A stretch of DNA of 58,566 nucleotides from IMG/VR virus record IMGVR_UViG_3300016476_000297, positions 1 through 58,566 of that record; one strand, written 5' to 3'. This document shows, piece after piece, positions 1 through 41,300 of the stretch. A model generated the notes under the pieces. That model ran no database searches and was not told the origin of the DNA. It saw nothing but the letters and a program-made list of their open reading frames with translations. Within the stretch, counting starts at the first letter, position 1, and each line of letters opens with the position of its first letter. Position numbers and translations under genes: made by a program. The DNA comes from a virus (lineage: Duplodnaviria > Caudoviricetes).

Positions 1-98
1 CGCTTGTCAATGGTTTTCCATGCCACATCGAACGCGATGCGCTTTTTCATGGTGGTTTCGATATCGGTGACGACGAACAGAGTCGGCTTGAAAGGCAT
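1..98 (-). CDS. DEDD-type 3'-5' exonuclease, N-terminal part (runs off window start)
   Basis: Hand translation MPFKPTLFVVTDIETTMKKRIAFDVAW: hydrophobic strand + DIETT = ExoI motif; AAAGGAAA RBS and own promoter at 133-161. Confidence 0.6.
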   Translation of the reverse strand, partial: MPFKPTLFVVTDIETTMKKRIAFDVAWKTIDK

Positions 99-132
99 CT
101 TGCAGGTTTCCTTTGTTTGCTGCGTTGAAATC

Positions 133-161
133 TTTATAGGCGATTCGCACGGGGTGGTCAA
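133..161 (-). promoter_or_regulatory. sigma70 promoter TTGACC-17-TATAAA with CGAATCG in spacer
   Basis: Consensus hexamers with 17-bp spacer, directly upstream of RBS/ATG. Confidence 0.8.
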
Positions 162-180
162 CAACAAAAAAACGTAGCAA

Positions 181-228
181 AATCAATGGGTTGGCGGCGG
201 GGGCGCTGGGGTAGCTAACCCCTTGTTA
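181..228. repeat. 48-bp dyad element copy 1 (IHF-like arm-N6-GGCGCT-N6-inverted arm)
   Basis: aatcaatgggttggc-ggcggg-ggcgct-ggggta-gctaaccccttgtta. Confidence 0.9.
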
Positions 229-420
229 TTCAACGATTTCTGCCCACACTGAAATCTTTTCGCAAGCCTCTTGCCATAGCTGTTGCTGCACATCATCTAG
301 GTATGCATCAATGGCTTCCTGCCCATCCTCGACAACATCGTCAGGCACATCTTCCATCCATTCGGATTCAGTCCCTGCAAAACCCATCGAATAGCCTAGT
401 TTAACCCTCATCTTCTTCAT
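226..420 (-). CDS. small acidic hypothetical phage protein
   Basis: 64-aa ORF overlapping the end of the upstream gene, GAGGA RBS, stop inside dyad 1. Confidence 0.75.
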   Translation of the reverse strand: MKKMRVKLGYSMGFAGTESEWMEDVPDDVVEDGQEAIDAYLDDVQQQLWQEACEKISVWAEIVE

Positions 421-862
421 CCTCTTCTTCTAGCGCATCTTCTGCACATTTCCAACACAGGTTATCGCCCTCCACATTTTCCATATCCCCATGGTGGAAG
501 TGCCAACCGCAACAATCGCAGGTTGAAATTTCTTCCCACACCATATCCTCAACCTTTGAGCGGTCCGAATCGCTCAGTTGCTCAATATCGTCGCCCCATT
601 CCATATAGAATGAACCGTTCGACCCGTCAATAATGTATGCTGCAATTTCTTCAAGAGTAGGGACATGCGCGGGGACGGTAAACACATCAAGAGTGGAGCG
701 AGTAGTGACGATGGAAACAATCTTGTATTCCTGCGACTCGCGGTCCTCGATATTCAGGGCGTGATTCTTTGCAGCCATTTCCGAGTTGAACAGTTCGCCG
801 ACCTGATAACCAGTGTCAGGTCCAGTAGCGCAAAACAGTTGGTATTTGATTTCAGTGGTCAT
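401..862 (-). CDS. hypothetical protein with C-terminal CxxC..CxxC zinc finger and acidic tail
   Basis: Start reassigned to MTTEIKY (AGGAGA RBS, downstream of promoter TTGCAC-17-GATAAG at 884-912); CDCC..CWKC. Confidence 0.75.
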   Translation of the reverse strand: MTTEIKYQLFCATGPDTGYQVGELFNSEMAAKNHALNIEDRESQEYKIVSIVTTRSTLDVFTVPAHVPTLEEIAAYIIDGSNGSFYMEWGDDIEQLSDSDRSKVEDMVWEEISTCDCCGWHFHHGDMENVEGDNLCWKCAEDALEEEDEEDEG

Positions 863-930
863 TGGCTTCTCCTGCGTTATCCTCTTATCGCACGGATAGA
901 CAGCTTGTGCAATAGAAAAGAATGCTTTCA

Positions 931-978
931 TTTCAACAGTTTAGCGGCGGGGGCGCCGCCCCTTGCAAGTGCTTGACT
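931..978. repeat. 48-bp dyad element copy 2
   Basis: tttcaacagtttagc-ggcggg-ggcgcc-gcccct-tgcaagtgcttgact; right half also forms hairpin cccttgcaagt/acttgcaaggg + T-run. Confidence 0.9.
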
Positions 979-991
979 TGCAAGGGTTTTT

Positions 992-1291
992 TCAGTATTC
1001 GCCTGACGGCAGAATCCCATCATAGACAGGACCGTTTTCCGCGATTTTAATGTCCTCATAAGGACCAATAATAACGCGGTTCAGTTCCATTTTAGCGCAT
1101 TCCAGCGCACCAATCATTTCATTCACCACGGCATATTTCAGCCCTTTGGTTTTGATGTAATTGGCGATGAAAGTGGATACCAGAAAATTCAATTCTCCGG
1201 CATTTTCAGGCGTCCAATTAAGGCCGCCCAATTCATCATCGAGCAAATCATTATGAATGTCGATGCGTTGCTGTTGCGGGATATACGGCAT
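992..1291 (-). CDS. conserved phage protein (DUF6899-like), typical neighbour of nucleotide-metabolism genes
   Basis: MPYI...GELNF...IGALECAKMEL.R....PYED.KI.ENG.VY signature. Confidence 0.65.
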   Translation of the reverse strand: MPYIPQQQRIDIHNDLLDDELGGLNWTPENAGELNFLVSTFIANYIKTKGLKYAVVNEMIGALECAKMELNRVIIGPYEDIKIAENGPVYDGILPSGEY

Positions 1292-1292
1292 T

Positions 1293-1736
1293 TTAAGCGA
1301 CCTTTTTCAGAGTTTCGACATTGCGATTGCGACCCAATTGGGACGCGATGGAATAGAAGGCACCTTTGACCAGATTGTCAGTATCCAGCCAAGTCCAGAG
1401 GTGGTGATGCGTAAATGCCACATCGGAAATTCCGTTCGGGCAGATAGAGCCACACTTGCCGACGGCATAAACAGGCTTGCCCATGCCATAGGCCATACCA
1501 ATCTCAACCAGCGCGCCGCGCTGTTCTTCTGCCATATCCTCAGAGTAGAGCAGAACGAAATCGGAGTCTCGCACATCCTCGTAGCACATTTGCCACAGGA
1601 GTCGTTTATTTGATACCACAATCGGGTCATCTTGTTTCAGGTCAATCCAGCGAGCCTGAACGGGCAGGCCGACCGTATCCCGAAGGTGGCGAAACTTGTC
1701 AGCGTGCCAGATTTTGCCAGCGGTGTAGAATTTCAT
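1293..1736 (-). CDS. nucleoside 2-deoxyribosyltransferase / N-glycosidase family protein
   Basis: YTAG N-terminal motif, DVRDSDFVLL, GALVEIGMAYGMGKPVY catalytic Glu motif; promoter TTGTGT-17-TATACA at 1766-1794. Confidence 0.75.
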   Translation of the reverse strand: MKFYTAGKIWHADKFRHLRDTVGLPVQARWIDLKQDDPIVVSNKRLLWQMCYEDVRDSDFVLLYSEDMAEEQRGALVEIGMAYGMGKPVYAVGKCGSICPNGISDVAFTHHHLWTWLDTDNLVKGAFYSIASQLGRNRNVETLKKVA

Positions 1737-1812
1737 GGCGTCTTTTCCTCTCTTGCCGATGATTATGTATAGCCCGATTCGTCAGGTAACACAACAGAAA
1801 AGAATTGAATGA

Positions 1813-1860
1813 AATCAATAGTTTAGCGGCGGGGGCGCCTCGGCACCTAAGTGCCTGAAT
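1813..1860. repeat. 48-bp dyad element copy 3
   Basis: aatcaatagtttagc-ggcggg-ggcgcc-tcggca-cctaagtgcctgaat. Confidence 0.9.
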
Positions 1861-2057
1861 TATAAAGGTTTATTTGCGGCCATTTCACAGAAACGCAGAA
1901 CGTGGTCCAGTTCCTTTTCAAACTGCACAGCATTTGCGTTACCTTTTTCAATCTCGCGTTCTACATCTTCTAGCATGTATCGAATCTTAAGGAAAGCGAC
2001 ACCGCCGTCAGAGTTGACGATTTCAACAATTTTCATCAGTTTAGAGGTCAGCGTCAT
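1860..2057 (-). CDS. small helical hypothetical protein
   Basis: AAAGGA RBS 7 nt before ATG (MTLTSK); stop codon at the edge of dyad 3. Confidence 0.7.
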   Translation of the reverse strand: MTLTSKLMKIVEIVNSDGGVAFLKIRYMLEDVEREIEKGNANAVQFEKELDHVLRFCEMAANKPL

Positions 2058-2080
2058 TTTCATATCCTTTTGTTGTGGCA

Positions 2081-2106
2081 ATAGCAGGGGTGGCCACCCC
2101 TGCTAT
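2081..2106. terminator. perfect 26-bp palindrome (terminator or processing hairpin)
   Basis: atagcaggggtggccacccctgctat. Confidence 0.55.
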
Positions 2107-2295
2107 CACTTCTTACACCTGTCCAGAGGACCGGAGCAGTTTTGGCTGATTAGGCCCACTTCACGCACGTTGTCGCATAGCCCCTTCCGGTGGTGGCTTA
2201 CCCGATATTTTTCATGAGCAATATCAAACCTCATCAAGGCATCCCCTTGCGGATATCTAGCTAACGTCAGGCAATCACCCCTTTCGTCCTTCGAT
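2107..2295 (-). ncRNA. candidate multi-stem structured RNA
   Basis: Lies between promoter TTGCGC-17-TATATT (2302-2330) and the 2081-2106 hairpin; pairings GGTG-ATTGCCTGA/TCGGGTAA-GC-CACC, ATGAG/CTCAT, ACCGGA/TCCGGT; only a weak ORF. Confidence 0.35.
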
Positions 2296-2369
2296 ATAAA
2301 CAATATAGGCGATTCTCAGCAGGAGCGCAAGTAAAATATTCATTTCAATGCTAGAAAAGAATGTAGTCA

Positions 2370-2417
2370 AATCAACGATTTAGATGATATGGCGCCCCGC
2401 CCCCTAACCCTTTGATT
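2370..2417. repeat. 48-bp dyad element copy 4
   Basis: aatcaacgatttaga-tgatat-ggcgcc-ccgccc-cctaaccctttgatt. Confidence 0.9.
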
Positions 2418-2430
2418 TCAAAGGGTTTTT

Positions 2431-2527
2431 TGGTGAGTGACCCGCTGCGGACTCGAACCGCACACCCCCTCTGCAAAGTTGTCAAGTAGTTGCAGCTTCC
2501 TTGACAGGGCGGCACCATACGCGGGCC
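2431..2527 (-). ncRNA. tRNA-like RNA with a pseudoknot in place of the anticodon arm
   Basis: Acceptor GGCCCGC/GCGGGTC, T-arm TGCGG-TTCGAGT-CCGCA, no D-stem, helix TGCC-G-CCCT/AGGG-GGTG closing H-type pseudoknot GTCAAG/CTTGAC + CTGCAA/TTGCAG; ends ACTCACCA. Confidence 0.65.
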
Positions 2528-2531
2528 ATAA

Positions 2532-2557
2532 GGCTAGGCGGCTCTCACCGCCTAGCC
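2532..2557 (-). terminator. GC-rich hairpin after A2-like gene (terminator or processing site)
   Basis: GGCTAGGCGG-TGAGAG-CCGCCTAGCC, 10-bp perfect stem. Confidence 0.55.
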
Positions 2558-2563
2558 GATTCG

Positions 2564-2932
2564 TCAGACCGTCTCCGGTTCCGCTTCTTCCTCAGCGGGC
2601 GATTCGCCCTGCTGCTCAGCCAGCGCGATAACGTGCGCGATGGCTTCCTTGGTGGCACCCATCAGACCCGACACGTCGAAGGCGACCAGCGACTCGAGCT
2701 GATTCAGAAGTTCCTTCTTCGTCGGACCTTCTTCCCGCTTCGCCTTGGGCTTTTCGGGAGCGGCGACGTAGACGCCTTCGCGCACCAGCTTGGAGCGCAC
2801 CGAACGCACGGGCTTGCCGATGGTTTCGGCAATCGTGTCCAGACCTTCGTTGCCGAGTTCGGCATACATCTGGAGCATGGTTTCCACCATAGCTTCGGTG
2901 TAGTTCACTTTCGAGGTTTTCGCATCAGCCAT
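2564..2932 (-). CDS. A2: T5 A2-like pre-early DNA-binding protein
   Basis: Y...M..MY..L...GL..IA...G...RSVRSKL...Y pattern and size match recalled T5 A2; AAAGGAGA RBS; promoter TTGCCC-17-TATAAA at 2971-2999. Confidence 0.7.
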   Translation of the reverse strand: MADAKTSKVNYTEAMVETMLQMYAELGNEGLDTIAETIGKPVRSVRSKLVREGVYVAAPEKPKAKREEGPTKKELLNQLESLVAFDVSGLMGATKEAIAHVIALAEQQGESPAEEEAEPETV

Positions 2933-3038
2933 TGCTTTCTCCTTTGCATCTTGGCTTCTTCAATACAGTCTTTATAAGCGACTCTCAGCGGGTGGGCAAG
3001 AGAAAAATTGCGGCGGCGACTAGGAAAGAATCCTTTGA

Positions 3039-3086
3039 AATCAACGACTTAGCGGCGGGGGCGCCGCGGCTGCTAACCGCTTGTTA
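3039..3086. repeat. 48-bp dyad element copy 5
   Basis: aatcaacgacttagc-ggcggg-ggcgcc-gcggct-gctaaccgcttgtta. Confidence 0.9.
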
Positions 3087-3243
3087 TTCTTGGAGTTTTT
3101 CTCTCTGCATCAAACCAACCTCTGAACCAACATCGGGCATAAACTGTCCCTTGTGTGTAGGGGCAGGAAAACTCCCACCCCTTGAGATACATATCACGGC
3201 CTGCGTTGTATGCAACTTGACGGTTGCCGTGCAGATACGCCAT
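3073..3243 (-). CDS. ribosome modulation factor (RMF/CrpP-fold)-like protein, 56 aa, absent from ORF track
   Basis: MAYLHGNRQVAYNAGRDMYLKGWEFSCPYTQGTVYARCWFRGWFDAERKTPRITSG: AY..G.....G....CPY........W..GW..A signature; GGGAG RBS. Confidence 0.65.
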   Translation of the reverse strand: MAYLHGNRQVAYNAGRDMYLKGWEFSCPYTQGTVYARCWFRGWFDAERKTPRITSG

Positions 3244-3245
3244 TG

Positions 3246-3449
3246 TCAACTCCCGCTGTAAACAATCATGCTCAGGCTGGACCCGACAGCAGACCGCTCA
3301 AACGGACGCTGCGGCTTGTGAGGATACGGACAGCCGGGCACGCCACATGGCCAGATTGCAGGCTCGTTGTTCGTTTCCGACCAGCAATTGATGCCACAGT
3401 TCGGACATTTTCCAGTCGGTTCCATTTTGCGGAAATCTAGCTTGCTCAT
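3246..3449 (-). CDS. small Cys-rich (zinc-binding) hypothetical protein
   Basis: CPNC...C..PGC; AAAGGAGA RBS; promoter TTGACC-17-TATAAC at 3475-3503. Confidence 0.7.
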   Translation of the reverse strand: MSKLDFRKMEPTGKCPNCGINCWSETNNEPAIWPCGVPGCPYPHKPQRPFERSAVGSSLSMIVYSGS

Positions 3450-3522
3450 CAGCTTCTCCTTTGCTGTTATGACCGTTATAGACGATTCTCAGAGTGTGGT
3501 CAACGACAAAATTAGTGTTTAA

Positions 3523-3570
3523 AATCAAAGAGCTAGAGCGTGGGGCGCTCTAGCTGCTAAGTTATTGATA
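3523..3570. repeat. 48-bp dyad element copy 6
   Basis: aatcaaagagctaga-gcgtgg-ggcgct-ctagct-gctaagttattgata. Confidence 0.85.
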
Positions 3571-3999
3571 AAACGAGTGATTTCCTATTCGGATGGTTCG
3601 TCGTTTATGAAAGGCTTGTTTGTGTTTACCGCCGTCAAAGTAAACTGCGCCTTTAGTAGTGTCTATTCCTTCTTCATGAAGGAAGCTGGCACGTAGAGCC
3701 ATGCTCTTTGCAGTAGTCCATGCTTCTTCTTCACGTATTCGAGGTTTATGTTTAGTCCAACTAAACTGGCCTCTTTGATATACCACGCCGCAAATGCTGT
3801 CTGGAAATCTATCATCTTCAGTTCTGTTCAAGGTTACGAACGCTACGGCTAACTGGCCGCTTAATGGTTCTCCTCTTGCTTCGTGGTATATGTTTTGTGC
3901 TAAGCAGTTGAGTTGTTTTTCGCTATACGTAGTCGCATTGGCAGTAAAACCGATCAGGGTCAACGCTAGCACCAATAGTCCGGTGCTCGTGTGAGACAT
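3562..3999 (-). CDS. cell wall hydrolase (SleB / Hydrolase_2 family) with signal peptide
   Basis: CLAQNIYHEARGEP..GQ.AVA.V.LNR....RFP.SICGVVYQ.GQFSW and IGNHSFY motifs; promoter TTGACA-18-TATACT at 4022-4051. Confidence 0.9.
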   Translation of the reverse strand: MSHTSTGLLVLALTLIGFTANATTYSEKQLNCLAQNIYHEARGEPLSGQLAVAFVTLNRTEDDRFPDSICGVVYQRGQFSWTKHKPRIREEEAWTTAKSMALRASFLHEEGIDTTKGAVYFDGGKHKQAFHKRRTIRIGNHSFYQ

Positions 4000-4069
4000 G
4001 TGTTTTCTCCTTTGTTAGTCTAGTATATCTGACAATACCCCTTTGTGTCAAATAAAAAATTTCGTTTAA

Positions 4070-4117
4070 CGATAATGGTTTACGACGCTAGGCGCCTCAT
4101 TCGCTAAACAGTTGATT
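4070..4117. repeat. 48-bp dyad element copy 7 (degenerate left arm)
   Basis: cgataatggtttacg-acgcta-ggcgcc-tcattc-gctaaacagttgatt. Confidence 0.8.
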
Positions 4118-4214
4118 GTAAATGCTTGCCTCACGCATTGCAAGCCGGTCTAGTATTTAGCGAGGGGTCACACGCACCCGAAGGCGTGATTTTCCAATCT
4201 AACTAGATCGTAAC

Positions 4215-4291
4215 TGGTGTTCCCAGAGGGACTCGAACCCCCAACCCCCGGATTATGAGTCCGGCGCTCTAACCAATTGAGCTATAAGAAC
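4215..4291 (-). tRNA. tRNA with CAT anticodon (Met or Ile2), CCA encoded
   Basis: GTTCTTA/TGGGAAC acceptor, D-arm GCTC-AATTGGTTA-GAGC, CCGGA-CTCATAA-TCCGG, TTCGAGT T-loop, ACCA. Confidence 0.92.
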
Positions 4292-4292
4292 A

Positions 4293-4368
4293 TGGTAGGC
4301 ACGGTCGGACTCGAACCGACAGCTTAAGGATTTTAAGTCCTCTGCGTTTACCTTTTCGCCACGCGCCC
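4293..4368 (-). tRNA. tRNA-Leu(TAA), short variable region, CCA encoded
   Basis: GGGCGCG/CGTGCCT acceptor, GAGGA-CTTAAAA-TCCTT anticodon arm, GTCGG-TTCGAGT-CCGAC, ACCA. Confidence 0.9.
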
Positions 4369-4377
4369 TCTATTACC

Positions 4378-4560
4378 CTACTCTAGAGGTTGTGTGCAAT
4401 CACAATCTGAAATGTATTCACTCCAGATTAAATCATATCCAATATCTCTGTTGGCTTCCCAATACCCAACAGATTCTGGATTTAAAGCTACCAGCCATAC
4501 GGCAGCAATAATGTGAAGTCCAACCGTGATGATTACCCAGTTTCTAATCACCGTTGTCAT
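4378..4560 (-). CDS. small membrane protein
   Basis: N-terminal hydrophobic helix; AAGGGAA RBS; promoter TTGCTT-17-TATAAA at 4593-4621. Confidence 0.65.
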   Translation of the reverse strand: MTTVIRNWVIITVGLHIIAAVWLVALNPESVGYWEANRDIGYDLIWSEYISDCDCTQPLE

Positions 4561-4639
4561 TCTAGTTCCCTTCTTTTCCCTTTGTTAAGATATTTATAAG
4601 CGATTCTCAGGCAACAAGCAAGCAGAAAGTTTCTTTTGT

Positions 4640-4687
4640 TGCCAGCATGTTAGCAGACTCAGCGCCGTAGTCACTAACCTGTTGATT
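4640..4687. repeat. 48-bp dyad element copy 8
   Basis: tgccagcatgttagc-agactc-agcgcc-gtagtc-actaacctgttgatt. Confidence 0.85.
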
Positions 4688-4747
4688 TTAAACTGATTTT
4701 GCACAGGATTTCCACAATTTTACCACCGGCGCAGGCAGGAGCCTGCG

Positions 4748-4879
4748 CTAATGCAGGCTCACCATGAAATAATGCGTTCCCGACAAAATCTCACTGGCCC
4801 AATCTTTCACCATTTCCGAAAAGGAACTGTAATGTGCTTCGGTAAAGCACCTGTCTGCGGTCCTGACGGTATATGTCAT
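4748..4879 (-). CDS. 43-aa hypothetical protein, absent from ORF track
   Basis: MTYTVRTADRCFTEAHYSSFSEMVKDWASEILSGTHYFMVSLH; GGAG RBS, starts 1 nt after the upstream stop. Confidence 0.55.
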   Translation of the reverse strand: MTYTVRTADRCFTEAHYSSFSEMVKDWASEILSGTHYFMVSLH

Positions 4880-4880
4880 T

Positions 4881-5063
4881 TTACAACTCCAGCCGCTCAA
4901 AGCCTTCCTGCACCGTGCCGATTTCATCGGCGAAACCGTCGGGGAACTGGACCCACAGCGACGTGCGAATGGTTCCGTCCATCATAACCTCATTCTCGAC
5001 AAAGATTCTGCCGACAACCGATTCGTAGATTGCGGTAGCGAAGGTCTGTCCGGTCAAGTCCAT
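4881..5063 (-). CDS. small hypothetical protein (SH3/KOW-like beta pattern possible)
   Basis: GGAG RBS before MDLTGQ; promoter TTGCAT-17-GATAAA at 5088-5116. Confidence 0.65.
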   Translation of the reverse strand: MDLTGQTFATAIYESVVGRIFVENEVMMDGTIRTSLWVQFPDGFADEIGTVQEGFERLEL

Positions 5064-5135
5064 TTGCATCTCCATCTCTGATGATTCTTTATCGCATAAC
5101 TATCAGAACCATGCAACAGTTAAAAAAGCGTGTGA

Positions 5136-5183
5136 TTTCAGTAACTTAGCCTGCGGGGCGCCGCCCCTCCTAAGTGCTTGTTT
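5136..5183. repeat. 48-bp dyad element copy 9
   Basis: tttcagtaacttagc-ctgcgg-ggcgcc-gcccct-cctaagtgcttgttt. Confidence 0.9.
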
Positions 5184-5194
5184 TTGTTGGGAAA

Positions 5195-5680
5195 TCAGCA
5201 GCTTTGCAGCCGCTGATTTACCTTTACAGCGTTCAGGCACGCAACACCAATCTCACGCATCTTGCGAATCACCGGATAGCTATCATCAAACATTACGACC
5301 GGTTTGCCGCGGAATTGTTTCAGGTTCCGCAGGCGTTGAATCTTTCTAGCCTTCAAAACCGGGTCCTTGATGTGATTCTCAGAACCATCCTCGGGACGGC
5401 ACAAAACAAGGTGGGCGTCAAGCCCATGATGGGCCAGATAGTCCCAATCGTCCTGATTCATGGCACGAGCCGTGCAGATGACCACGTAATTTTCTTTCCT
5501 GTCCAGACGCTTGAACGTATCGGCCAGAGGCAGAAGCGTATCACGGAAGATGCTTTCCCGATTCTTGAGCGCGAAATAGCGGTCCAGATCCAGAGTGCCA
5601 TCGGAACGCGACGGAGTTCTGTGGGCAGAATCAATGATAGTCTCATCCAAATCGAACACAACGACTCTCTTGATTGTCAT
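5195..5680 (-). CDS. HAD-superfamily phosphatase (PNK-phosphatase / nucleotidase-like)
   Basis: VVVFDLDETIID motif I, CTAR motif II, K motif III, MFDD motif IV; promoter TTGCAT-17-TATAAA at 5704-5732. Confidence 0.85.
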   Translation of the reverse strand: MTIKRVVVFDLDETIIDSAHRTPSRSDGTLDLDRYFALKNRESIFRDTLLPLADTFKRLDRKENYVVICTARAMNQDDWDYLAHHGLDAHLVLCRPEDGSENHIKDPVLKARKIQRLRNLKQFRGKPVVMFDDSYPVIRKMREIGVACLNAVKVNQRLQSC

Positions 5681-5750
5681 AGCTTTATCTCCTCTGATGA
5701 TTCTTTATAACCTAGGACGCAATTAAATGCAATAGGAAAGAGTTGTTATA

Positions 5751-5798
5751 AATCAAGACCTTAGAAGGCTGGGCACCTAGTCTGATAAGCTATTGTTT
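5751..5798. repeat. 48-bp dyad element copy 10 (core GGCACC; overlapped by end of GIY-YIG gene)
   Basis: aatcaagaccttaga-aggctg-ggcacc-tagtct-gataagctattgttt. Confidence 0.8.
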
Positions 5799-6451
5799 TT
5801 ATTACGCTTTTCAATATCTGCAAGCCAAGAAATAACAGTAGACCTAGGTATGCCAGTAGAAGTCCATATAGTTATTCTATCGACGCCTTGTTTGTATAAA
5901 TCTTCAACCAACTGTTTTTTACGTTCTTTAGGTGTTCTAGAGTCTTTTAGTAGGTAGCTCAAGTGTTTCCAAGATTCTTTCATTCTTATAGACCTAATAG
6001 TAGATATGTGACAGTTATATTTTTTAGCTATATCAGTATTAGGGTTACCTATATTAATTAGCTCAATAATCTCAACTACCAATGTATCGTTAAGTTTTGC
6101 AAATCCCCCGCTCATATTACCATATTTTGTATATATGGTTTCAAGTCTTTTCTGCTTTACATTATCATCTCTCATAGGGTTGTTAGATGAGTTATGTATA
6201 TTATAAGAACCATCAAAAGCCTTATCTAGCCAAAACTTTTCACGCTCTACGAGATTACTTGTCTCTTCTATAATCTCAAAAGTAAATGACTCATCTCCAT
6301 AACAGTCCCAATCTAATTGTAGTTTATAGTTGTGATGCTCTTGCTTATTAAGAGTTCTTATGTGTCTTTGCCATCTTTTTGTTATATCAGAAGAAGAGCC
6401 TATATAAATTCTATTTTCTGGTAAACAAGTTATTTTATAAATTCCTTGCAT
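5777..6451 (-). CDS. GIY-YIG endonuclease (free-standing homing endonuclease type) with C-terminal HTH-like domains
   Basis: GIYKI...YIGSS..I..RW..H, FTFEIIE, RE..W; markedly AT-rich relative to neighbours; promoter TTGATA-17-CATAAT at 6473-6501. Confidence 0.9.
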   Translation of the reverse strand: MQGIYKITCLPENRIYIGSSSDITKRWQRHIRTLNKQEHHNYKLQLDWDCYGDESFTFEIIEETSNLVEREKFWLDKAFDGSYNIHNSSNNPMRDDNVKQKRLETIYTKYGNMSGGFAKLNDTLVVEIIELINIGNPNTDIAKKYNCHISTIRSIRMKESWKHLSYLLKDSRTPKERKKQLVEDLYKQGVDRITIWTSTGIPRSTVISWLADIEKRNKNNSLSD

Positions 6452-6522
6452 TATAATATTCCTTTCTATTTTATTATGTCAGAAATATTTGGTGTTATCA
6501 AGAAGATTTTTAAAATATTTAG

Positions 6523-6570
6523 CTTCAATGGGTTAGCCTGTGGAGCGCCGCCCTGCATAACCGCTTGATT
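6523..6570. repeat. 48-bp dyad element copy 11
   Basis: cttcaatgggttagc-ctgtgg-agcgcc-gccctg-cataaccgcttgatt. Confidence 0.9.
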
Positions 6571-6583
6571 ATGCAGGGTTTTT

Positions 6584-6841
6584 TCAGGCCGCCTCCAGCT
6601 CGTCGTTAAACACCGTGAACCAATCGGCAGGTTGCGACGTGTCCGTGTCCGACCCTTGCCACGTGAACCCCTCAAACTGAACCTCATACGAGTAGGAATC
6701 GGGACGCTCCAAGAAGATGGCCCACTCGCTGCGTTCGCGCACAGTGCCGACCTGTCCAAACAGTTGTGCGTAGTCACTGTGGTATTTGCCTTGTTCCTTG
6801 CCGCGACCAACGAACCGAACCTGCTGACCCACTTCAAACAT
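6584..6841 (-). CDS. hypothetical protein (KOW/SH3-like, F.VG..VR start)
   Basis: AAAGGAGA RBS; promoter TTGCAA-17-TATACA at 6868-6896. Confidence 0.75.
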   Translation of the reverse strand: MFEVGQQVRFVGRGKEQGKYHSDYAQLFGQVGTVRERSEWAIFLERPDSYSYEVQFEGFTWQGSDTDTSQPADWFTVFNDELEAA

Positions 6842-6914
6842 TTGGCATCTCCTTTGCTGTTATGATTTGTATACGTGATTCGTTGTAGTGTTGCAAGCGG
6901 ATAAAAGTGTCTGT

Positions 6915-6962
6915 TTTCAGTGGGTTAGCCTACGCAGCGCCGCCCTTGCTAACCCGTTGATT
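6915..6962. repeat. 48-bp dyad element copy 12
   Basis: tttcagtgggttagc-ctacgc-agcgcc-gccctt-gctaacccgttgatt. Confidence 0.9.
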
Positions 6963-6974
6963 AGCAAGGCTTTT

Positions 6975-7268
6975 CTAGCTGCACAACCTCTCGACCAGAT
7001 CTTTTGCCTCGCGCAGTGCCAGACGCGGAGTGAAGCAATCGCGCAACAGTTTGATTGCTCCAATCTTGTTTCCTTCCTGAACCAGACACCTGACGTTGTC
7101 CAAGTCGGCAGCGCAGCGGTTGGTATCGTATTCCGTCCGTCCGCTGTCGGGAACCGCCTCACCAGCCAGCCTCGCAGCTTCAAGAAGAGTGTGTGCAATG
7201 TGAAGATTACCGTAGGCATCTTCAATGACGAACCCGTTCTGGGCAACTTTGATATTTTCGAGCCGCAT
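6975..7268 (-). CDS. protein with C-terminal ribosomal bL12 (L7/L12) CTD-like motif
   Basis: GNKIGAIKLLRD....LALREAKDLVE; AAAGGAGA RBS; promoter TTGCAT-17-TATAAA at 7293-7321. Confidence 0.65.
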   Translation of the reverse strand: MRLENIKVAQNGFVIEDAYGNLHIAHTLLEAARLAGEAVPDSGRTEYDTNRCAADLDNVRCLVQEGNKIGAIKLLRDCFTPRLALREAKDLVERLCS

Positions 7269-7340
7269 AGTAATCTCCTTTGCTGTTAATTATTTATATC
7301 TGATTCGCAAGCGTCATGCAAGCCTGAAATATGTGTTAGT

Positions 7341-7388
7341 TGTCAAAGGGTTAGCACGCAGGGCGCCCAGACCCGTAACCTGTTGATT
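7341..7388. repeat. 48-bp dyad element copy 13
   Basis: tgtcaaagggttagc-acgcag-ggcgcc-cagacc-cgtaacctgttgatt. Confidence 0.9.
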
Positions 7389-7533
7389 TTGCACGAAAAT
7401 CTTACCTAAAATTCACACCTAAATCGCACCTACTTCCCACCGGCGCAGGCTCCGCCTGCGCTTATGATACTACGTATCAAGCGATTCGTCAAGGCCAAAA
7501 ATGAACTGGTCGAAAAGGAACTAGGCAAGCGGC

Positions 7534-7881
7534 TCACTTGAGCCGCTTGAGGGTCTTGGCAACCGAACCTTCCTTGATGCCGACAGTGAAGGCCACGCGG
7601 ACGATTTTTTGATTGACAGCCCAAACCGACTCTGCGACCGATTCGCTACGCATGGCAAATTCCCAAGCCGTTTTATCACTTTTCGCTTTGTTACAAGCGC
7701 CGCACAGGCATTGCAGGTTTTCCACAGTGGCCTTGCCGCCGTCCGACTCGGGGTGGATGTGGTCGCATTCCAGCGCGAAGGCATAGTTTTCCGAACCGCC
7801 GAACCCGCACGCGCGGCAGGTGAACGAGTCGCGGGCCAGAACCTTCGCGCGAACCGTGTCCGAGATCTTTGCCTTTGCCAT
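7534..7881 (-). CDS. HNH endonuclease
   Basis: Start reassigned to MAKAKIS (AAAGGAGA RBS; promoter TTGACA-17-TATAAA at 7910-7938); RD..TC..CG...DHIHP...GG....NLQ.LC..CN..K. Confidence 0.85.
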   Translation of the reverse strand: MAKAKISDTVRAKVLARDSFTCRACGFGGSENYAFALECDHIHPESDGGKATVENLQCLCGACNKAKSDKTAWEFAMRSESVAESVWAVNQKIVRVAFTVGIKEGSVAKTLKRLK

Positions 7882-7971
7882 CGCCCGTCTCCTTTGCTTC
7901 GGTGATTCTTTTATACGCCGATTCGCCCGACCTGTCAACGATAACATTTTGTGTTTCAGTGCCGATTTCCC

Positions 7972-8000
7972 TTGACAAGTTTGAGGCCGAATCGTATAAT
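7972..8000 (+). promoter_or_regulatory. plus-strand (antisense) sigma70 promoter, type-B element 1
   Basis: TTGACA-17-TATAAT with CGAATCG, followed by CGGCGCC and hairpin GGTGTGGC/GCCACACC. Confidence 0.7.
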
Positions 8001-8038
8001 CGGCGCCAGGTGTGGCTGATTCGCCACACCCTCGCTTT

Positions 8039-8284
8039 TTATGCGGCCGCAAGGATTCCGACCTTGACAGCCCACGCATCGTCGATAACCAGAACCGTCG
8101 GGACGCCGACTCGCTCACCGTCCTGTGCAGTGGCGATGACCACGCTAGCGCGGTCCTGCTCATGACGGACAAGGATCTTGGCCTTGGGAACCCACAGCGG
8201 CTTGACGCCCGCCTTAACGTCGCGACGCGCGACAAAGGCAACAGCGGCTTCAGTTTCGCGGACGATGTAACCTGTGGTCTGCAT
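8039..8284 (-). CDS. hypothetical protein, paralog of 10079-10324
   Basis: TGYIVR.T.AAVAFV....AGV.P.W.P..K...TAQDGERVG.P; AAGGAGA RBS; promoter TTGCGA-17-GATAAA at 8314-8342. Confidence 0.8.
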   Translation of the reverse strand: MQTTGYIVRETEAAVAFVARRDVKAGVKPLWVPKAKILVRHEQDRASVVIATAQDGERVGVPTVLVIDDAWAVKVGILAAA

Positions 8285-8386
8285 CTGGGTCTCTCCTTGT
8301 TTCCCGATGATTCTTTATCGCATGTCCCGCAGCGATTCGCAAGGACTATCATGCTATCAAGTTTTATTTCAGCGTGCCGATTTCGC

Positions 8387-8415
8387 TTGACAAGAATCGG
8401 GCGGCGTTGTAAAAT
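8387..8415 (+). promoter_or_regulatory. plus-strand sigma70 promoter, type-B element 2
   Basis: TTGACA-17-TAAAAT followed by CGGCGCGTGATTCGG. Confidence 0.65.
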
Positions 8416-8433
8416 CGGCGCGTGATTCGGCCC

Positions 8434-8562
8434 TTAGCGGGCCTTCACTTTCTGAAGCTGAAGAGCGAGGCGATACATCGCCGTGCGAAGATCTCGAGGC
8501 ATCGAACCGAGCGGCCCGAGCGGGCGACCGAGGCGGAGTTCGAGGATCTGGCGAGCGGTCAT
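8434..8562 (-). CDS. 42-aa basic hypothetical protein
   Basis: AAGGAGG RBS before MTARQIL; promoter TTGCGA-17-GATAAA at 8597-8625. Confidence 0.65.
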   Translation of the reverse strand: MTARQILELRLGRPLGPLGSMPRDLRTAMYRLALQLQKVKAR

Positions 8563-8668
8563 GGGAACCTCCTTGGCTATCCCGTTTCGATGATTCTTTA
8601 TCGCACGTCCTATCGTGATTCGCAAGACCTTTCTAAGATAACATTTTATATTTCAGTGTCGATTTCGC

Positions 8669-8696
8669 TTGACGCGAATCCTGCTTAGTGTATAAT
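8669..8696 (+). promoter_or_regulatory. plus-strand sigma70 promoter, type-B element 3
   Basis: TTGACG-16-TATAAT followed by AGGCGCGTGATTCGGGC and hairpin GATTCGGGC/GCCCGAATC. Confidence 0.6.
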
Positions 8697-8728
8697 AGGC
8701 GCGTGATTCGGGCTAGCGCCCGAATCTG

Positions 8729-8947
8729 TTACGCGTAGATCCGCGCAATCCGCTCGCGCAGCATGGATTCGTTCCACGCATCCCACAGTTGATTCACGCG
8801 CTCGCTGTGCTGTGCATAGGCGGCTTGCAAGCCCGCCAGCACCAGCGGCTTGGCGTTGCGCGCACGCGCGCGAGTCAGCCTCTCAAACGCCCGCTCGGCA
8901 GTGACAACGGCTGCAATCATCTCGCGAAGGGTTTCATGGGTGTGCAT
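8729..8947 (-). CDS. small helical hypothetical protein
   Basis: AAAGGAGA RBS; promoter TTGACT-17-TAAGGT at 8972-9000. Confidence 0.75.
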   Translation of the reverse strand: MHTHETLREMIAAVVTAERAFERLTRARARNAKPLVLAGLQAAYAQHSERVNQLWDAWNESMLRERIARIYA

Positions 8948-9019
8948 AGCAATCTCCTTTGCTCATGCTTAACCTTAGGTCGATTCGTCTCGGCAGTCAA
9001 GCACTGAAATGTATAGTAG

Positions 9020-9067
9020 TTTCAGTAGGTTAGCTCCTGGGGCGCCACCCCTGCTAACCTATTGATT
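9020..9067. repeat. 48-bp dyad element copy 14
   Basis: tttcagtaggttagc-tcctgg-ggcgcc-acccct-gctaacctattgatt. Confidence 0.9.
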
Positions 9068-9084
9068 ATGCAGGGTTTTTTCTG

Positions 9085-9276
9085 TCACTCGGTGGAGTGG
9101 TCCATCTCGCAAGTCAGAGCGAAGTCATTGACATCAAACGTATTTTCCAGTAGAGCTTGTTGCTCCTCGATTCGCACCGCGCAATCCTCGGCGGTCATGT
9201 CGTAGTCCACAACATATGCGAGATCCGGCGTGTCAGCGCCAAACAGAGTCAGAACGAGGATGAACGTTGCGGCCAT
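9085..9276 (-). CDS. small hypothetical protein (hydrophobic N-terminus, two Cys)
   Basis: GGAG RBS; 63 aa. Confidence 0.7.
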   Translation of the reverse strand: MAATFILVLTLFGADTPDLAYVVDYDMTAEDCAVRIEEQQALLENTFDVNDFALTCEMDHSTE

Positions 9277-9294
9277 TTGATTACTCCAGGTTGA

Positions 9295-9471
9295 TTATTT
9301 CAGGGTCACGCGGATAGGTTCGGCAGGAGGATTGACAAGGTATCCCGATTCGTCAATGCCCCAAGCCGCCCTGTCATTCACTGTTACCACCTCAGCACTA
9401 CCAGAGTCAAGCAAGATCCAGCCCGACGCGATGGCGATGGCGGCAGCGGCTAGGAAGATTACTACTTTCAT
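9295..9471 (-). CDS. 58-aa signal-anchored/membrane protein, absent from ORF track
   Basis: MKVVIFLAAAAIAIASGWILLDSGSAEVVTVNDRAAWGIDESGYLVNPPAEPIRVTLK; GGAG RBS. Confidence 0.6.
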   Translation of the reverse strand: MKVVIFLAAAAIAIASGWILLDSGSAEVVTVNDRAAWGIDESGYLVNPPAEPIRVTLK

Positions 9472-9528
9472 TTTTCAACTCCAGCGTGTTCGGTTTTTAA
9501 CTTCGGTTTTAGACTAGGCGGCTGGCGG

Positions 9529-38388: not shown

Positions 38389-41300
38389 TTGGCAACTATA
38401 AAGAATATAATACAAACAATATTTACATCTCAGGGGGCTGGTGGCACATCTAGAGATATTGAAACGCTCGGAAGAGCTCAAACCCGCCTAGGTCAGTCTT
38501 CTGCTAGTGCGGGTCGTTCTTTTGCTGCCCAGTCTCAGGGTCTTGGTGGTCTAGTAGCTGCATATGCCGGAGCAGCTGCTACTACATTTGCATTACAACA
38601 AGGTTTTGATAAACTAGCAAAAAGTGCTAGAGCTCTTCAAACAATTGAAGGCCTATCCGCATTAGCCGGCGGTATTGCACAAGATGGTAGTGCCATATTA
38701 AAGTCTGTCCAAGATATAACAAAAGGACAGATGACGTTAGTAGAGTCTGCGTCTCAAATAAACCTAGCGCTGAGTGCAGGATTTAACACTAAACAAATAG
38801 AAGGACTAGCTCAAGTTTCCTTAAAAGCCTCTAGAGCTTTGGGTAGGGACTTAACGGACGCCATGACTCGTGTTACTAGAGGTTCTGCAAAAATGGAAAC
38901 AGAACTTCTAGACGAATTAGGTATTTATACTAAAATAGAGCCTGCTACTAGGGCGTATGCGGCTGCTATAGGCAAAAGCGTAACTTCTCTTAGTGAATTT
39001 GAACGTAGACAAGCTTTTGCTAATGCGGTAATTGCTGAAGGCCAAAGAAAGTTCTCCAGCATCAATACGTCTGTAGCAACTAGCGCTGAAAAAATCGAAG
39101 CATTTGGGGCTAGAATTATAGACTTAGGTCTAAAATTAGGCGGTATTTTAGCTGATGTTGTAGCTCCTTTAGCAGATTTTATGACAAATAACTTAACTGC
39201 TAGTTTTTCTGGATTTGCTCTAGTAGTATCTCTAATTGCAAGTAAGGCTATACAAGTATTTTTAGGTGCTATAGATATGCTGAGGGATAGGGCATTAGCT
39301 AGTTCCAGGGCATTAGAAAATAAATCCAGAATATTACTAGGTATTGCAGACGCTGCTAAAACTGCTACTAGCGCCATAGCCGGACTTAACTTAGCTACTT
39401 TTAGAGGTACGCAAGCAGAAAAAAACCAAATTGCATCTCTACAGGATGCCGCTAAAGCTAGAGCCTTAACTAGAAGTGAGCTGGTACAGTCTCAAAAATT
39501 AATACAAAAAAATATTGCATCTCTTAGTGATGAGAGAGCGGCCTATAGACAGAGTATTAGGGAGGCGGCTGTAGCTAGAGGTAAGTTGGAGCAAGCCAGG
39601 GCAATGCCACGAGGCGCAAGACCAGGAGATTTTAGCGACCCTGCTGAACGCGCTAGGAATGCGGCTATACGAGCTGCCAATAGAGAAATTGCAGCTACTC
39701 GTCCTGCAGCTGTTGCAGCTGTGCAGGCGCTTCCGGCACTTAGGTCCCAGCTAAATCAGTTAGAAACTGCTTATGCGGCTACTGGGGCCGCTGCCACTGG
39801 TGCTAGAGCGCAGTTAGCTGCTTTTAGCGGGGCAGCAATTGCTTTTGGAGGTAAACTAGTAAGTAATTTTGCTGCCGGTACTGGGGCGGTTCTCGGTCTG
39901 GTCAGTAAGATATTTTTCTTTGTTAGTATAATACAACTAGCAGGCAGCGCTATATCCAGTTTTCTAGGTTATGGTGATGATTTTAATGCTTTCTTCATAG
40001 GAGTAGGCAAAAATATACAAGAGTACTTTGGGTTAGATAAAGCTAAGACTATAAAAAATACCGTAAACGGAATAGTAGCAGGTAGTCTTTCTAATATAGA
40101 AAAAACCAATAAAGAGTTAAGCCAATTAGAAACATTTAAATTTAAAGAGAAGAAAATACTTGGAATAGAGTTCTCTGTTGAAAAAACAAAAGAGGATTTA
40201 GTTAAAGAGGCTGGAAGCATATTAAGCACTGTTTCTAGTGGTGTATCCGACGGTGTACAAGACGGCCTAGTTCAGGGCGCACTAGCAGGTGCTGCATTAG
40301 GCGCTTTTGTCGGCCCTATTGGAGTTGCTGTAGGTGCTGCTGTGGGTGCTGGTCTAGGTTACTTTTTAGATTCTTCTTTTAATGAAATAGAAGATGCTAC
40401 TTCTAAGTATGGGGCCTCTATTAAAAAGAGACTAAAATCAGAACTATCTGGATTCAGTACTGAGGCGGCAGACAATGCTGTCCAGGCCCTAAGTGTGTTA
40501 GAGGAAAGAATGGGCAGACAAGCTATGTTTGACCCTCAAGCGCGCGCTGCTAAAGAAGTTTTAGAGTCTCTAATACTTCAATCAGCACAGTACTCAGATC
40601 AGTTTGCTACTATAAGTAAGATAGTTTCTGCCACAGGTAAGCAATCAGATGCTATAACTAATCAATTTGATTTTGCACCAGTAGTATCATCTCTTGATTA
40701 TATTGATAGCGCTATAATTAAAATAAACGAAACAGAGCTGAGATTGAGAATAGCAGATGAAGATTCTGCAGCTTTACAGGCATTTTTTGATAAATACTCA
40801 GATAATATAAACACCGTACTATTTCAATTATCAGACGCTAATCTAAAAGGTAAGCTAAGTGCTACTAATTTAGGACTTGATTTATCTGGTTTTGATTCAA
40901 AAGATGTAAACAACTTTGCACTAGCTTATCAGGAAGCTGCTAAGCAACAAGAGAATTTAACAGTAGCACAATTTGCTAGTACGGTAGCATCTTCAGAATC
41001 TACCGATTTAAATAGAGTCCTTGCTGCTTCTTTTTCTAATCTAGGAGATAGTGCTAATAGTGCTGAAGTAATATTAAAAAGCTATTCGGCGTCTACACTT
41101 CCTGATATACAATCTTCTATACTCAATACAATAAAGACCACAAATGAGTTAAATAACTCTCTGTTAAGAAGTGAAACTGTTCTTGCTGATACGTTTAGCG
41201 GTATTAATGATGGTAGCCTAGACGTAGAAAAATTTACTCAAAACTTTTCTAACGTACAAGATTCACTGGTATCTTCCATAAGATACGTACCTAAAGCTCA

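Follow-up and report, generated by a model that had tools for sequence, protein, structure and literature searches.

A conserved promoter-upstream palindrome with IHF-type arms separates exchangeable gene cassettes in an uncultured T5-like phage

RESULTS

Fourteen dyads punctuate the left end of the record

The window, by which we mean the whole stretch of DNA analysed here, is the complete IMG/VR record IMGVR_UViG_3300016476_000297 (58,566 bases; completeness ~45% by CheckV). It opens with an array of gene cassettes separated by copies of a 48-bp palindromic repeat, which we call the dyad. An original prediction, made from the letters alone, had placed 14 dyads of fixed geometry in this region. 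When the copies were extracted, all 14 lay at the start coordinates given there and had the layout wwTCAA-N4-TTAGC-N6-GGCGCC-N6-GCTAA-N4-TTGAww. The array genes (1-9.5 kb) are all on the minus strand, with AGGAG-type ribosome-binding sites, and their promoters are on the same strand, which corrects the original prediction. The dyads, their promoters and the hairpins at some of them are as follows, with (-) denoting the minus strand; the joints mentioned are taken up under cassette exchange.

181..228: dyad 1; promoter 133-161 (-), a promoter-like match 19 nt past the dyad (matrix and promoter scan)
931..978: dyad 2; degenerate TGCAA arm on the upstream-gene side; promoter ~884-912 (-), by eye
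960-986, plus strand: hairpin with T-run at dyad 2
1813..1860: dyad 3; promoter 1766-1794 (-)
2370..2417: dyad 4; promoter 2302-2330 (-), long-spacer class (39 nt)
2406-2427, plus strand: hairpin with T-run at dyad 4
3039..3086: dyad 5, the best match; promoter 2971-2999 (-), 39-nt class, before the A2-like gene
3523..3570: dyad 6; promoter ~3475-3503 (-); on the minus strand, a 10-bp hairpin at the centre and then a T-rich tail
4070..4117: dyad 7, the weakest copy (21.9 bits); promoter 4022-4051 (-)
4640..4687: dyad 8; degenerate promoter-side arm; promoter 4593-4621 (-); one half in common with a dyad of the related record G001
5136..5183: dyad 9; promoter 5088-5116 (-); joint 5143->6937 in X3 and X9
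5751..5798: dyad 10; core GGCACC; promoter 5704-5732 (-)
6523..6570: dyad 11; promoter 6473-6501 (-), of the GIY-YIG gene; joints 6554, 6583, 6524 and 6518
6915..6962: dyad 12; promoter 6868-6896 (-); joints 6937, 6969, 6971 and 6974
7341..7388: dyad 13; promoter 7293-7321 (-)
9020..9067: dyad 14; promoter 8972-9000 (-); joints 9005, 9078 and 9085

The pattern TTAGC-N6-RGCGCY-N6-GCTAA, with up to two mismatches, gave 13 matches in the window against a mean of 0.08 in 100 shuffles. Twelve of these are known dyads, and the extra one, at 13328, is unrelated and has no GCGC core; the dyads at 931 and 5751 carry more than two mismatches to this core-and-inner-arm pattern. A weight matrix built from the 14 copies returned those 14 alone at 10 bits or more on both strands of the 58,566 bases, a scan that is circular for the 14 themselves and informative on the absence of further copies. 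A symmetric matrix from 99 non-redundant copies (up to 14 of them from the window) returned the same 14 at 18 bits or more, and an arms-only pattern (12 specified bases, at most one mismatch) found 14 in the window versus 1 in a reversed control. By extraction and by both matrices, the predicted dyads are thus all present and occur nowhere else in the record. The GCGC core is found in 13 of the 14, the copy at 5751 (GGCACC) being the exception. Stop codons, whose predicted positions proved to be ends of open reading frames (ORFs), fall inside the neighbouring dyad or at most 18 nt beyond it, as had been proposed. The N4 and N6 segments had been described as varying freely; they do vary, but they are not unconstrained, as the minus strand is G-rich before the core and C-rich after it.

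Distribution of the dyads and identity of the phage

An exact pattern scan of IMG/VR yielded 14 loci, of which 10 hold 3-13 copies, 3 are weak chance matches and one has a single strong copy at a contig end. A looser pattern extended this to 43 IMG/VR stretches, with all 33 new loci holding 2-18 copies. Counted by contig name, 34 IMG/VR contigs besides the window carry dyad arrays. In each of the records G001, G002, G003 and G005, nearly all matches were confined to a single stretch of 6-16 kb; outside it, one 3-mismatch match was present in G002 and another in G003. G004 had a single copy. In the cultured phages T5, My1, Slocum and JSF10, arms-only matches were at background and none had a GC-rich core. 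Across 596 Gb of species-representative bacterial genomes we found one exact match, which scored 14 bits and was taken as chance, and the idea of a host-genome element was rejected on this single low-scoring match. Such dyads were not described in the open-access literature searched.

G001 (78 kb) is syntenic with the window, and its array is located between the structural genes, which run divergently from it, and a long gene block that runs towards it. This block (L025 5986-8717, corresponding to G001 60986-63717) includes a nicotinamide phosphoribosyltransferase and a cytidyltransferase/NUDIX fusion of NAD-salvage type.

The TerL protein of the window is 41-44% identical to those of Demerecviridae (T5-like phages), and elsewhere the record has genes for siphovirus tail proteins, a terminase and a head protease/capsid fusion. 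As judged from these proteins, the phage is a distant, uncultured T5-like siphovirus. A megablast search for close cultured relatives returned a tRNA match only. Among the tail genes there is an ORF of 3550 aa (38389-49041, plus strand), possibly a very long tape-measure protein. This ORF had given rise to the idea of an N4-like phage with hairpin promoters, which was dismissed on the PHROG matches to siphovirus tail and terminase proteins and on the relatives of TerL.

Conserved arms, a core that differs between subclades and no covariation

Across the 99 non-redundant copies, near-invariant positions are C4 A5 A6, T11 T12 A13, G22-C27, T36 A37 A38 and T43-A46. Within these, C4, A5, A6, T11, T12, A37, A38, T44 and G45 are kept in 95-99 of the 99 copies, and the core positions in 84-92. 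In the same set the symmetry reaches further outward, with an A-tract at -13..-9 that mirrors a T-tract at about 58..62, and the dyad is therefore an element of ~76 bp rather than 48.

The original prediction had likened each arm to an integration host factor (IHF) site with an adjoining A-tract, and this was borne out. The IHF consensus WATCAANNNNTTR was matched at 8 or more of its 9 specified positions by 187 of 213 upstream arms and 186 of 213 promoter-side arms, against a background rate of 0.08% of 13-mers, and an A-rich flank adjoins the arm in 143 and 139 of the 213, respectively. In the available part of PMC11724364, this consensus (given as WATCAANNNNTTR / YAANNNNTTGATW) is reported with an affinity that depends on AT-rich flanks, and its core CA and TT coincide with the invariant arm positions here.

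Arms also occur outside the standard geometry. Of 192 dyads, 21 are followed by an additional lone arm, which has a T-tract of its own and in most cases lies 30-31 nt past the dyad. Variant dyads with the same CAA-N4-TTA arms were found in L071-L073, L087, L089, L090, L116, L117, L119 and L133, and most of these loci have a CCCGGG-type core and an arm spacing of 19-23 bp (mostly 20) versus the fixed 22. Together, the lone arms and the variation in core and spacing indicate that the arms are independent putative binding units. The core, in turn, appears to be a subclade-specific GC-rich palindrome; the CCCGGG-type subclades do without the GGCGCC core, and GCGC is present in only some of their copies.

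This variation bears on the possibility that the GCGC core is a T5-type single-strand nick site, used by a phage nickase in virion DNA. T5-like phages, to which the present phage belongs, carry site-specific nicks, and the consensus of the four major T5 nicks, R/GCGCRGG, contains GCGC (PMC3517423, in the part available). However, the core of the dyad is symmetric and gives way to C-rich sequence in place of RGG. The nicks of T5, moreover, are strand-specific and spread out rather than clustered before promoters, and the CCCGGG-type subclades have no GGCGCC core. We consider a nick site extremely unlikely.

We then compared mirrored positions for pairing. In 201 copies, mirrored variable arm positions pair no more than column composition predicts (|z| <=2.5), and in the central stem pairing is at chance in every register. 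As the arms do not covary, the symmetry is not kept by intrastrand pairing. A whole-dyad hairpin or cruciform, or a fixed central stem, was rejected for the same reason, the mutual information reflecting neighbour effects only. This non-covariation is the strongest argument that the dyad is read as duplex DNA by a protein, and it points to the same conclusion that the original prediction had drawn from conserved geometry combined with low identity.

A promoter at fixed phase follows the dyad

On the minus strand, the order within a unit is stop codon, dyad, T-rich tract and sigma70-type promoter. A promoter-like match starts 18-19 nt past the dyad in 102 of 201 oriented copies and 17-21 nt past it in 108, while on the opposite side of the dyad merely 6 such matches start at 17-21 nt. 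Another class, of 10 copies, has its promoter-like match at 37-41 nt, about two helical turns further. Within 80 nt, a promoter-like site is present in 142 of the 201 copies and at all 14 dyads of the window. Copies of the 39-nt class have a second T-tract next to the -35 element, and it follows that the first T-tract belongs to the dyad.

Hairpins are copy-specific and confined to the upstream half

A perfect stem of at least 5 bp is found in the upstream half of 37 of the 99 copies, compared with 4 of 99 in the mirrored half and ~6 in shuffles. The hairpin is specific to each copy and restricted to the upstream half, with the left N6 as its 3' strand and the left N4 or the 5' flank as its 5' strand. 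Between homologous dyads of the window and G001 there is a compensatory double change, GCGG..CCGC to GCAC..GTGC. Rfam (E up to 0.1) gave no family besides two tRNAs and one sub-threshold match, a plastid untranslated region on the opposite strand of a tRNA gene, and a known RNA family was accordingly discarded for the dyads.

It is conceivable that the element works only as RNA, as a bidirectional terminator, attenuator or processing site, with its symmetry a by-product. Terminator-like hairpins do overlap the dyads, some copies fold well (z down to -4.4), and the promoter early stem-loop (PeSL) elements of T4-type phages have stem-loops that terminate transcription, as described in the available parts of PMC2839356 and PMC4122927. 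On the other hand, neither the arms nor any register of the central stem covary, specific bases are invariant on both arms beyond the needs of pairing, and the folds vary from copy to copy and match no Rfam family. An RNA-only element is, in our judgement, very improbable.

Cargo of the array

Genes and other features carried by the array include the following.

5195..5680 (-): homologue of T5 Dmp (deoxynucleoside-5'-monophosphatase), 161 aa; 34% identity, E 7e-18
2564..2932 (-): homologue of T5 A2, 122 aa; hhalign probability 94.5%, E 8e-8; BLASTP E 4e-8
5777..6451 (-): GIY-YIG homing-endonuclease-like gene; GC 0.32; in another context in L006 and X5
7534..7881 (-): HNH endonuclease gene
4215..4368 (-): tRNA-Met and tRNA-Leu, in one cassette
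7957..8735: three cassettes in which a different repeat replaces the dyad, with antisense promoter, GGCGCS motif and hairpin with T-run

Pfam assigned no family to 13 of 20 proteins of the array region, and PHROGs gave a match for 1 of 10 array proteins. GC content ranges from 0.32 to 0.63 across the genes, consistent with the heterogeneous cargo composition first noted, and averages 48.9% in the array (1-9500) versus 38.9% in the remainder (11000-58566). The T5 genes dmp and A2 lie in the terminal repeat, the first part of the T5 DNA to enter the cell (record AY543070). According to the available portion of 10.1101/866236, the only ORFs retained consistently in the T5 first-step region are dmp, A1, A2 and one other, the rest being variable. 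The left 9.5 kb is probably a fast-turnover pre-early (host-takeover) region. The earlier suggestion that this is first-injected DNA gains some backing from the dmp and A2 homologues, at the level of homology.

The dyad-less repeats occupy 7957-8040, 8372-8445 and 8652-8735. Each has a near-consensus promoter on the plus strand and GGCGCC or GGCGCG in the start region, with a T-run hairpin ~10-45 nt downstream at the first two and a similar arrangement, by eye, at the third. These repeats may encode tiny antisense RNAs. There is also a tRNA-like gene of 91 nt (2437-2527, minus strand), to which ARAGORN assigned no anticodon and for which Rfam gives no confirmation; the stretch 2437-2527 is replaced in contigs of X5 and X9 (joint 2383->2563).

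Cassettes are exchanged at the modules

Although homologous structural proteins of the window are 74-95% identical to those of G001, the two have few array cassettes in common. In pairwise views, homology at some dyads is limited to one half and its flank. L005 differs from L013 by an extra 250-bp cassette, which is bounded by two dyads sharing their promoter-side halves.

Logan contigs from four runs of four studies, matched to the array at 90% likeness or more, join non-adjacent cassettes via dyads: 5143->6937 (X3 and X9), 961->6971, 6554->6971 and 6583->996. X3 and X5 include contigs 121-137 kb long. The joint 5143->6937 creates a hybrid dyad with 14 replaced letters and an intact 48-bp length. 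By our reading, the table of joints contains 11 long-range joints, and 17 of their 22 ends are within a dyad +/-20 nt, a zone that makes up 12% of the stretch. Where joints run backward, they may reflect variant alleles of a dyad or a different order of genes. One whole cassette is cleanly deleted in X3 and X5 (6846->7273), at 13-16 letters shared by two ribosome-binding regions, and recombination therefore also takes place outside the dyad. In a change-point analysis corrected for column conservation, the boundaries in 10 informative pairs were at -2, 10, 31, 34, 34, 54, 56, 56, 61 and 64. Taken together, the scattered boundaries and the joint in the ribosome-binding regions tie exchange to the module and not to one phosphodiester bond, and a module-tied crossover without a fixed point is what homology-driven recombination would predict.

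Of the cassette shuffling at the core that had been proposed, the exchangeability of the intervals is upheld, while a single crossover at RGCGCY is contradicted by boundaries that run from -2 to 64 among the 10 pairs and by the deletion in the ribosome-binding regions. Nor was a co-occurring recombinase found: searches for tyrosine and serine recombinases (PF00589, PF00239) were negative in five incomplete fragments of 16-78 kb.

These data can be set against a model in which the dyad is a site-specific recombination site, attC-like or an att core between IHF arms, with a recombinase exchanging strands at the core. Its inverted IHF-type arms around a 6-bp palindromic core would fit, as would the hybrid dyads that pair halves of different dyads, the boundaries placed by eye near the core (positions 20-32) and the joints at positions 23, 31 and 32. 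After correction, however, the boundaries scatter, with 5 of 10 in the spacer past the dyad, and the clean deletion and the recombinase searches speak against the model as well. Moreover, a palindromic core is directionless, yet cassettes are co-oriented in most loci, every cassette is served by a promoter of its own at a fixed phase to the dyad, and subclades differ in both core sequence and spacing. We regard such a site as very unlikely.

The A2-like protein as a candidate arm binder

A2-like genes (E<=1e-3) occur in 38 loci, in up to three places per locus, and by our tally in 32 of 35 dyad-bearing contigs. The motif RSVRxKLVREGxY is invariant in 28 aligned homologues, and weak matches among these members were obtained to Sigma70_r4_2 (23), HTH_23 (12) and HTH_58 (7). 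The predicted structure has two helical domains, with a mean predicted local distance difference test (pLDDT) score of 79.5. In the atlas clusters nearest to the protein (0.95-0.97), 13-48% of members carry Pfam Phage_T5_A2. A tblastn search of 50,697 records of cultured phages returned nothing. In Foldseek the structure gave weak helix-turn-helix matches and none that was significant (best E 0.24), and nothing fell below E 0.025 when the profile was compared with sequences of solved structures.

A lone extra arm stands before 10 of 26 A2-like genes versus 11 of 166 other genes, an odds ratio of 8.8 that overstates independence because the copies are related. Relatives of the A2-like protein were present in 197 IMG/VR stretches; of 69 such loci examined, 33 have no canonical dyad, and 29 of those 33 have none by an arms-only scan.

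The arms could thus be operators for this A2-like helix-turn-helix protein instead of IHF sites, each arm being bound by a single bipartite monomer. Binding would then silence or adjust the pre-early promoters, place the A2-like genes under autoregulation, or organise the DNA that enters first. In line with this are the near-constant company of A2-like genes and dyads, the invariant protein motif that parallels the invariant DNA arms, the weak helix-turn-helix and sigma-type matches with two predicted helical domains, the annotation of T5 A2 as a DNA-binding protein in AY543070, and the enrichment of lone arms before A2-like genes. But the family is wider than the dyads, T5 has A2 and no such dyads, the Foldseek result is not significant, and A-tracts at IHF-like spacing would be unexpected for a simple operator. 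We hold this explanation to be unlikely, although more plausible than the nick-site, RNA-only and recombination-site proposals. Considered simply as a phage-encoded binder of the arms, the A2-like protein is a possible if doubtful candidate, ranked second after host IHF.

DISCUSSION

A composite module ahead of each cassette

The explanation we favour, and consider probable, is that the array is a T5-clade analogue of the PeSL promoter-terminator cassettes, located in the pre-early region and equipped with a new predicted protein-binding palindrome. Each pre-early transcription unit would be preceded by one conserved composite module of ~125 bp. Its first part would be the stop codon of the previous gene, often with a copy-specific hairpin and a T-run on the antisense strand. 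The second would be the ~76-bp dyad, comprising two inverted IHF-type sites (A-tract, WATCAA-N4-TTR) around a core that is GGCGCC in this subfamily. A promoter-side T-tract, which may double as an UP-like element, and a sigma70-type promoter at fixed helical phase, 18-19 nt or ~39 nt past the dyad, would complete it.

From the observed anatomy, conservation, phasing, absence of arm covariation and cassette turnover at the modules, we infer a binder, an effect on transcription and a pathway of recombination. A DNA-bending protein would bind each arm independently. Host IHF is the tentative first choice for this role, at slightly less than an even chance; it fits the arms and their A-tracts but not the core. 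The bend would set the promoter architecture upstream of each unit and separate it from its neighbours, and the hairpin may stabilise the 3' end of the upstream message or halt antisense transcription. General homologous recombination inside the modules would shuffle, delete and replace cassettes, because the module is the sole sequence common to otherwise unrelated cassettes.

It is also possible, if improbable, that the dyad nucleates a boundary complex, in which two sharp bends, imposed by IHF or by the A2-like protein, present the palindrome to a phage nuclease, nickase or recombinase. If so, lytic T5-like phages would have in the array a means of integron-like capture and reordering of host-takeover genes, or a place where A2 handles first-entering DNA.

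Several points weigh against the PeSL-like explanation or its choice of IHF. IHF leaves both the conservation of the GGCGCC core and positions G14 and C35 unexplained, and its natural sites tend to be more degenerate than the arms seen here. The presence of IHF in the host is an assumption, and five phage fragments yielded no HU/IHF gene. The third hallmark of the T5 pre-early region, A1, was likewise not found in a search of five incomplete fragments, nor did any of three G001 proteins compared with it give a significant match. At the RNA level, over half of the copies have no perfect-stem hairpin, the canonical terminators that hairpins form with the flanking run are mainly antisense (38 of 99 versus 8.7 in shuffles) with 11 of 99 in sense (3.9 in shuffles), and the 14 copies of the window fold heterogeneously on the sense strand (z from +0.15 to -4.4). 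Finally, all genomes compared are fragments, the copies share descent, so that counts are not independent events, and Logan contigs could be chimeric at repeats, some joints being short-sided.

If the explanation holds, the shared module contains a sharply defined putative protein-binding palindrome, and a concrete DNA motif is now linked with the variable pre-early region and with the T5 A2 family, which is poorly understood. The more than 200 natural variants of one promoter-upstream architecture could show what role a bending protein has in promoter strength and insulation on newly entered DNA. The modules would also mark the points at which host-takeover and anti-defence ORFans are swapped between phages.

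Comparison with known systems

Taken as IHF sites, the arms have the consensus, the AT-rich flank and the invariant CA and TT that are described in the accessible text of PMC11724364. They differ in that two inverted sites surround a GC-rich palindrome, stand before most array units and are far less degenerate.

Correia elements, as far as PMC2649163 is available, are also small palindromic intergenic repeats, with inverted repeats, an IHF site and effects as promoters or terminators. Those elements are chromosomal and resemble miniature inverted-repeat transposable elements (MITEs), whereas the dyad had one low-scoring match in the 596 Gb of bacterial genomes. The same contrast applies to bacterial interspersed mosaic elements (BIMEs) and the related RIP repeats, which are bacterial intergenic repeats with IHF sites, built on repetitive extragenic palindromic (REP) sequences.

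Integron attC sites likewise split co-oriented arrays of unrelated small genes with imperfect palindromes. An attC site is conserved as a folded single strand, which is read by IntI, and integron cassettes are promoterless behind one Pc promoter. In the array described here, by contrast, it is sequence and not pairing that is conserved, the cassettes carry promoters of their own, and the five incomplete fragments yielded no integrase.

The repeats of the T5 first-step-transfer region share the compartment, by dmp and A2, and that region is rich in repeats and palindromes and variable in its ORFs (10.1101/866236, available part). In the same source they are DnaA-box-bearing blocks in untranslated regions, not one unit per promoter, and T5 itself is without the dyad.

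The closest parallel is found in the PeSL cassettes of T4-type myoviruses (PMC2839356, PMC4122927). In the available parts of these papers, PeSLs are conserved intergenic modules of ~100 bp that combine a G-run/C-run stem-loop with an AT-rich tract, a Shine-Dalgarno sequence and an early promoter that is strong and sigma70-like; they bracket ORFans in hyperplastic regions, insertions, deletions and replacements map to them, and, as in the present array, no dedicated recombinase is known. The dyad modules have the early promoter with its AT-rich tract, and the ORFan flanks with boundaries at the element. The resemblance is one of architecture only, as neither homology to the T4-type elements nor occurrence in T4-like phages was found. 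Here the modules belong to the probable pre-early region of T5-like siphoviruses, a strictly placed palindrome with two IHF-consensus arms and no covariation is inserted between hairpin and promoter, and canonical terminators are mostly antisense; mini-circles are part of the PeSL description, whereas the dyads are known from contigs alone. The array is thus not the unprecedented system that had first been suspected, since the T4-type cassettes follow the same logic. What it would add is that mobile regulatory cassettes, a principle known from T4-type myoviruses, also operate in a T5-like clade that is uncultured and widespread in the environment.

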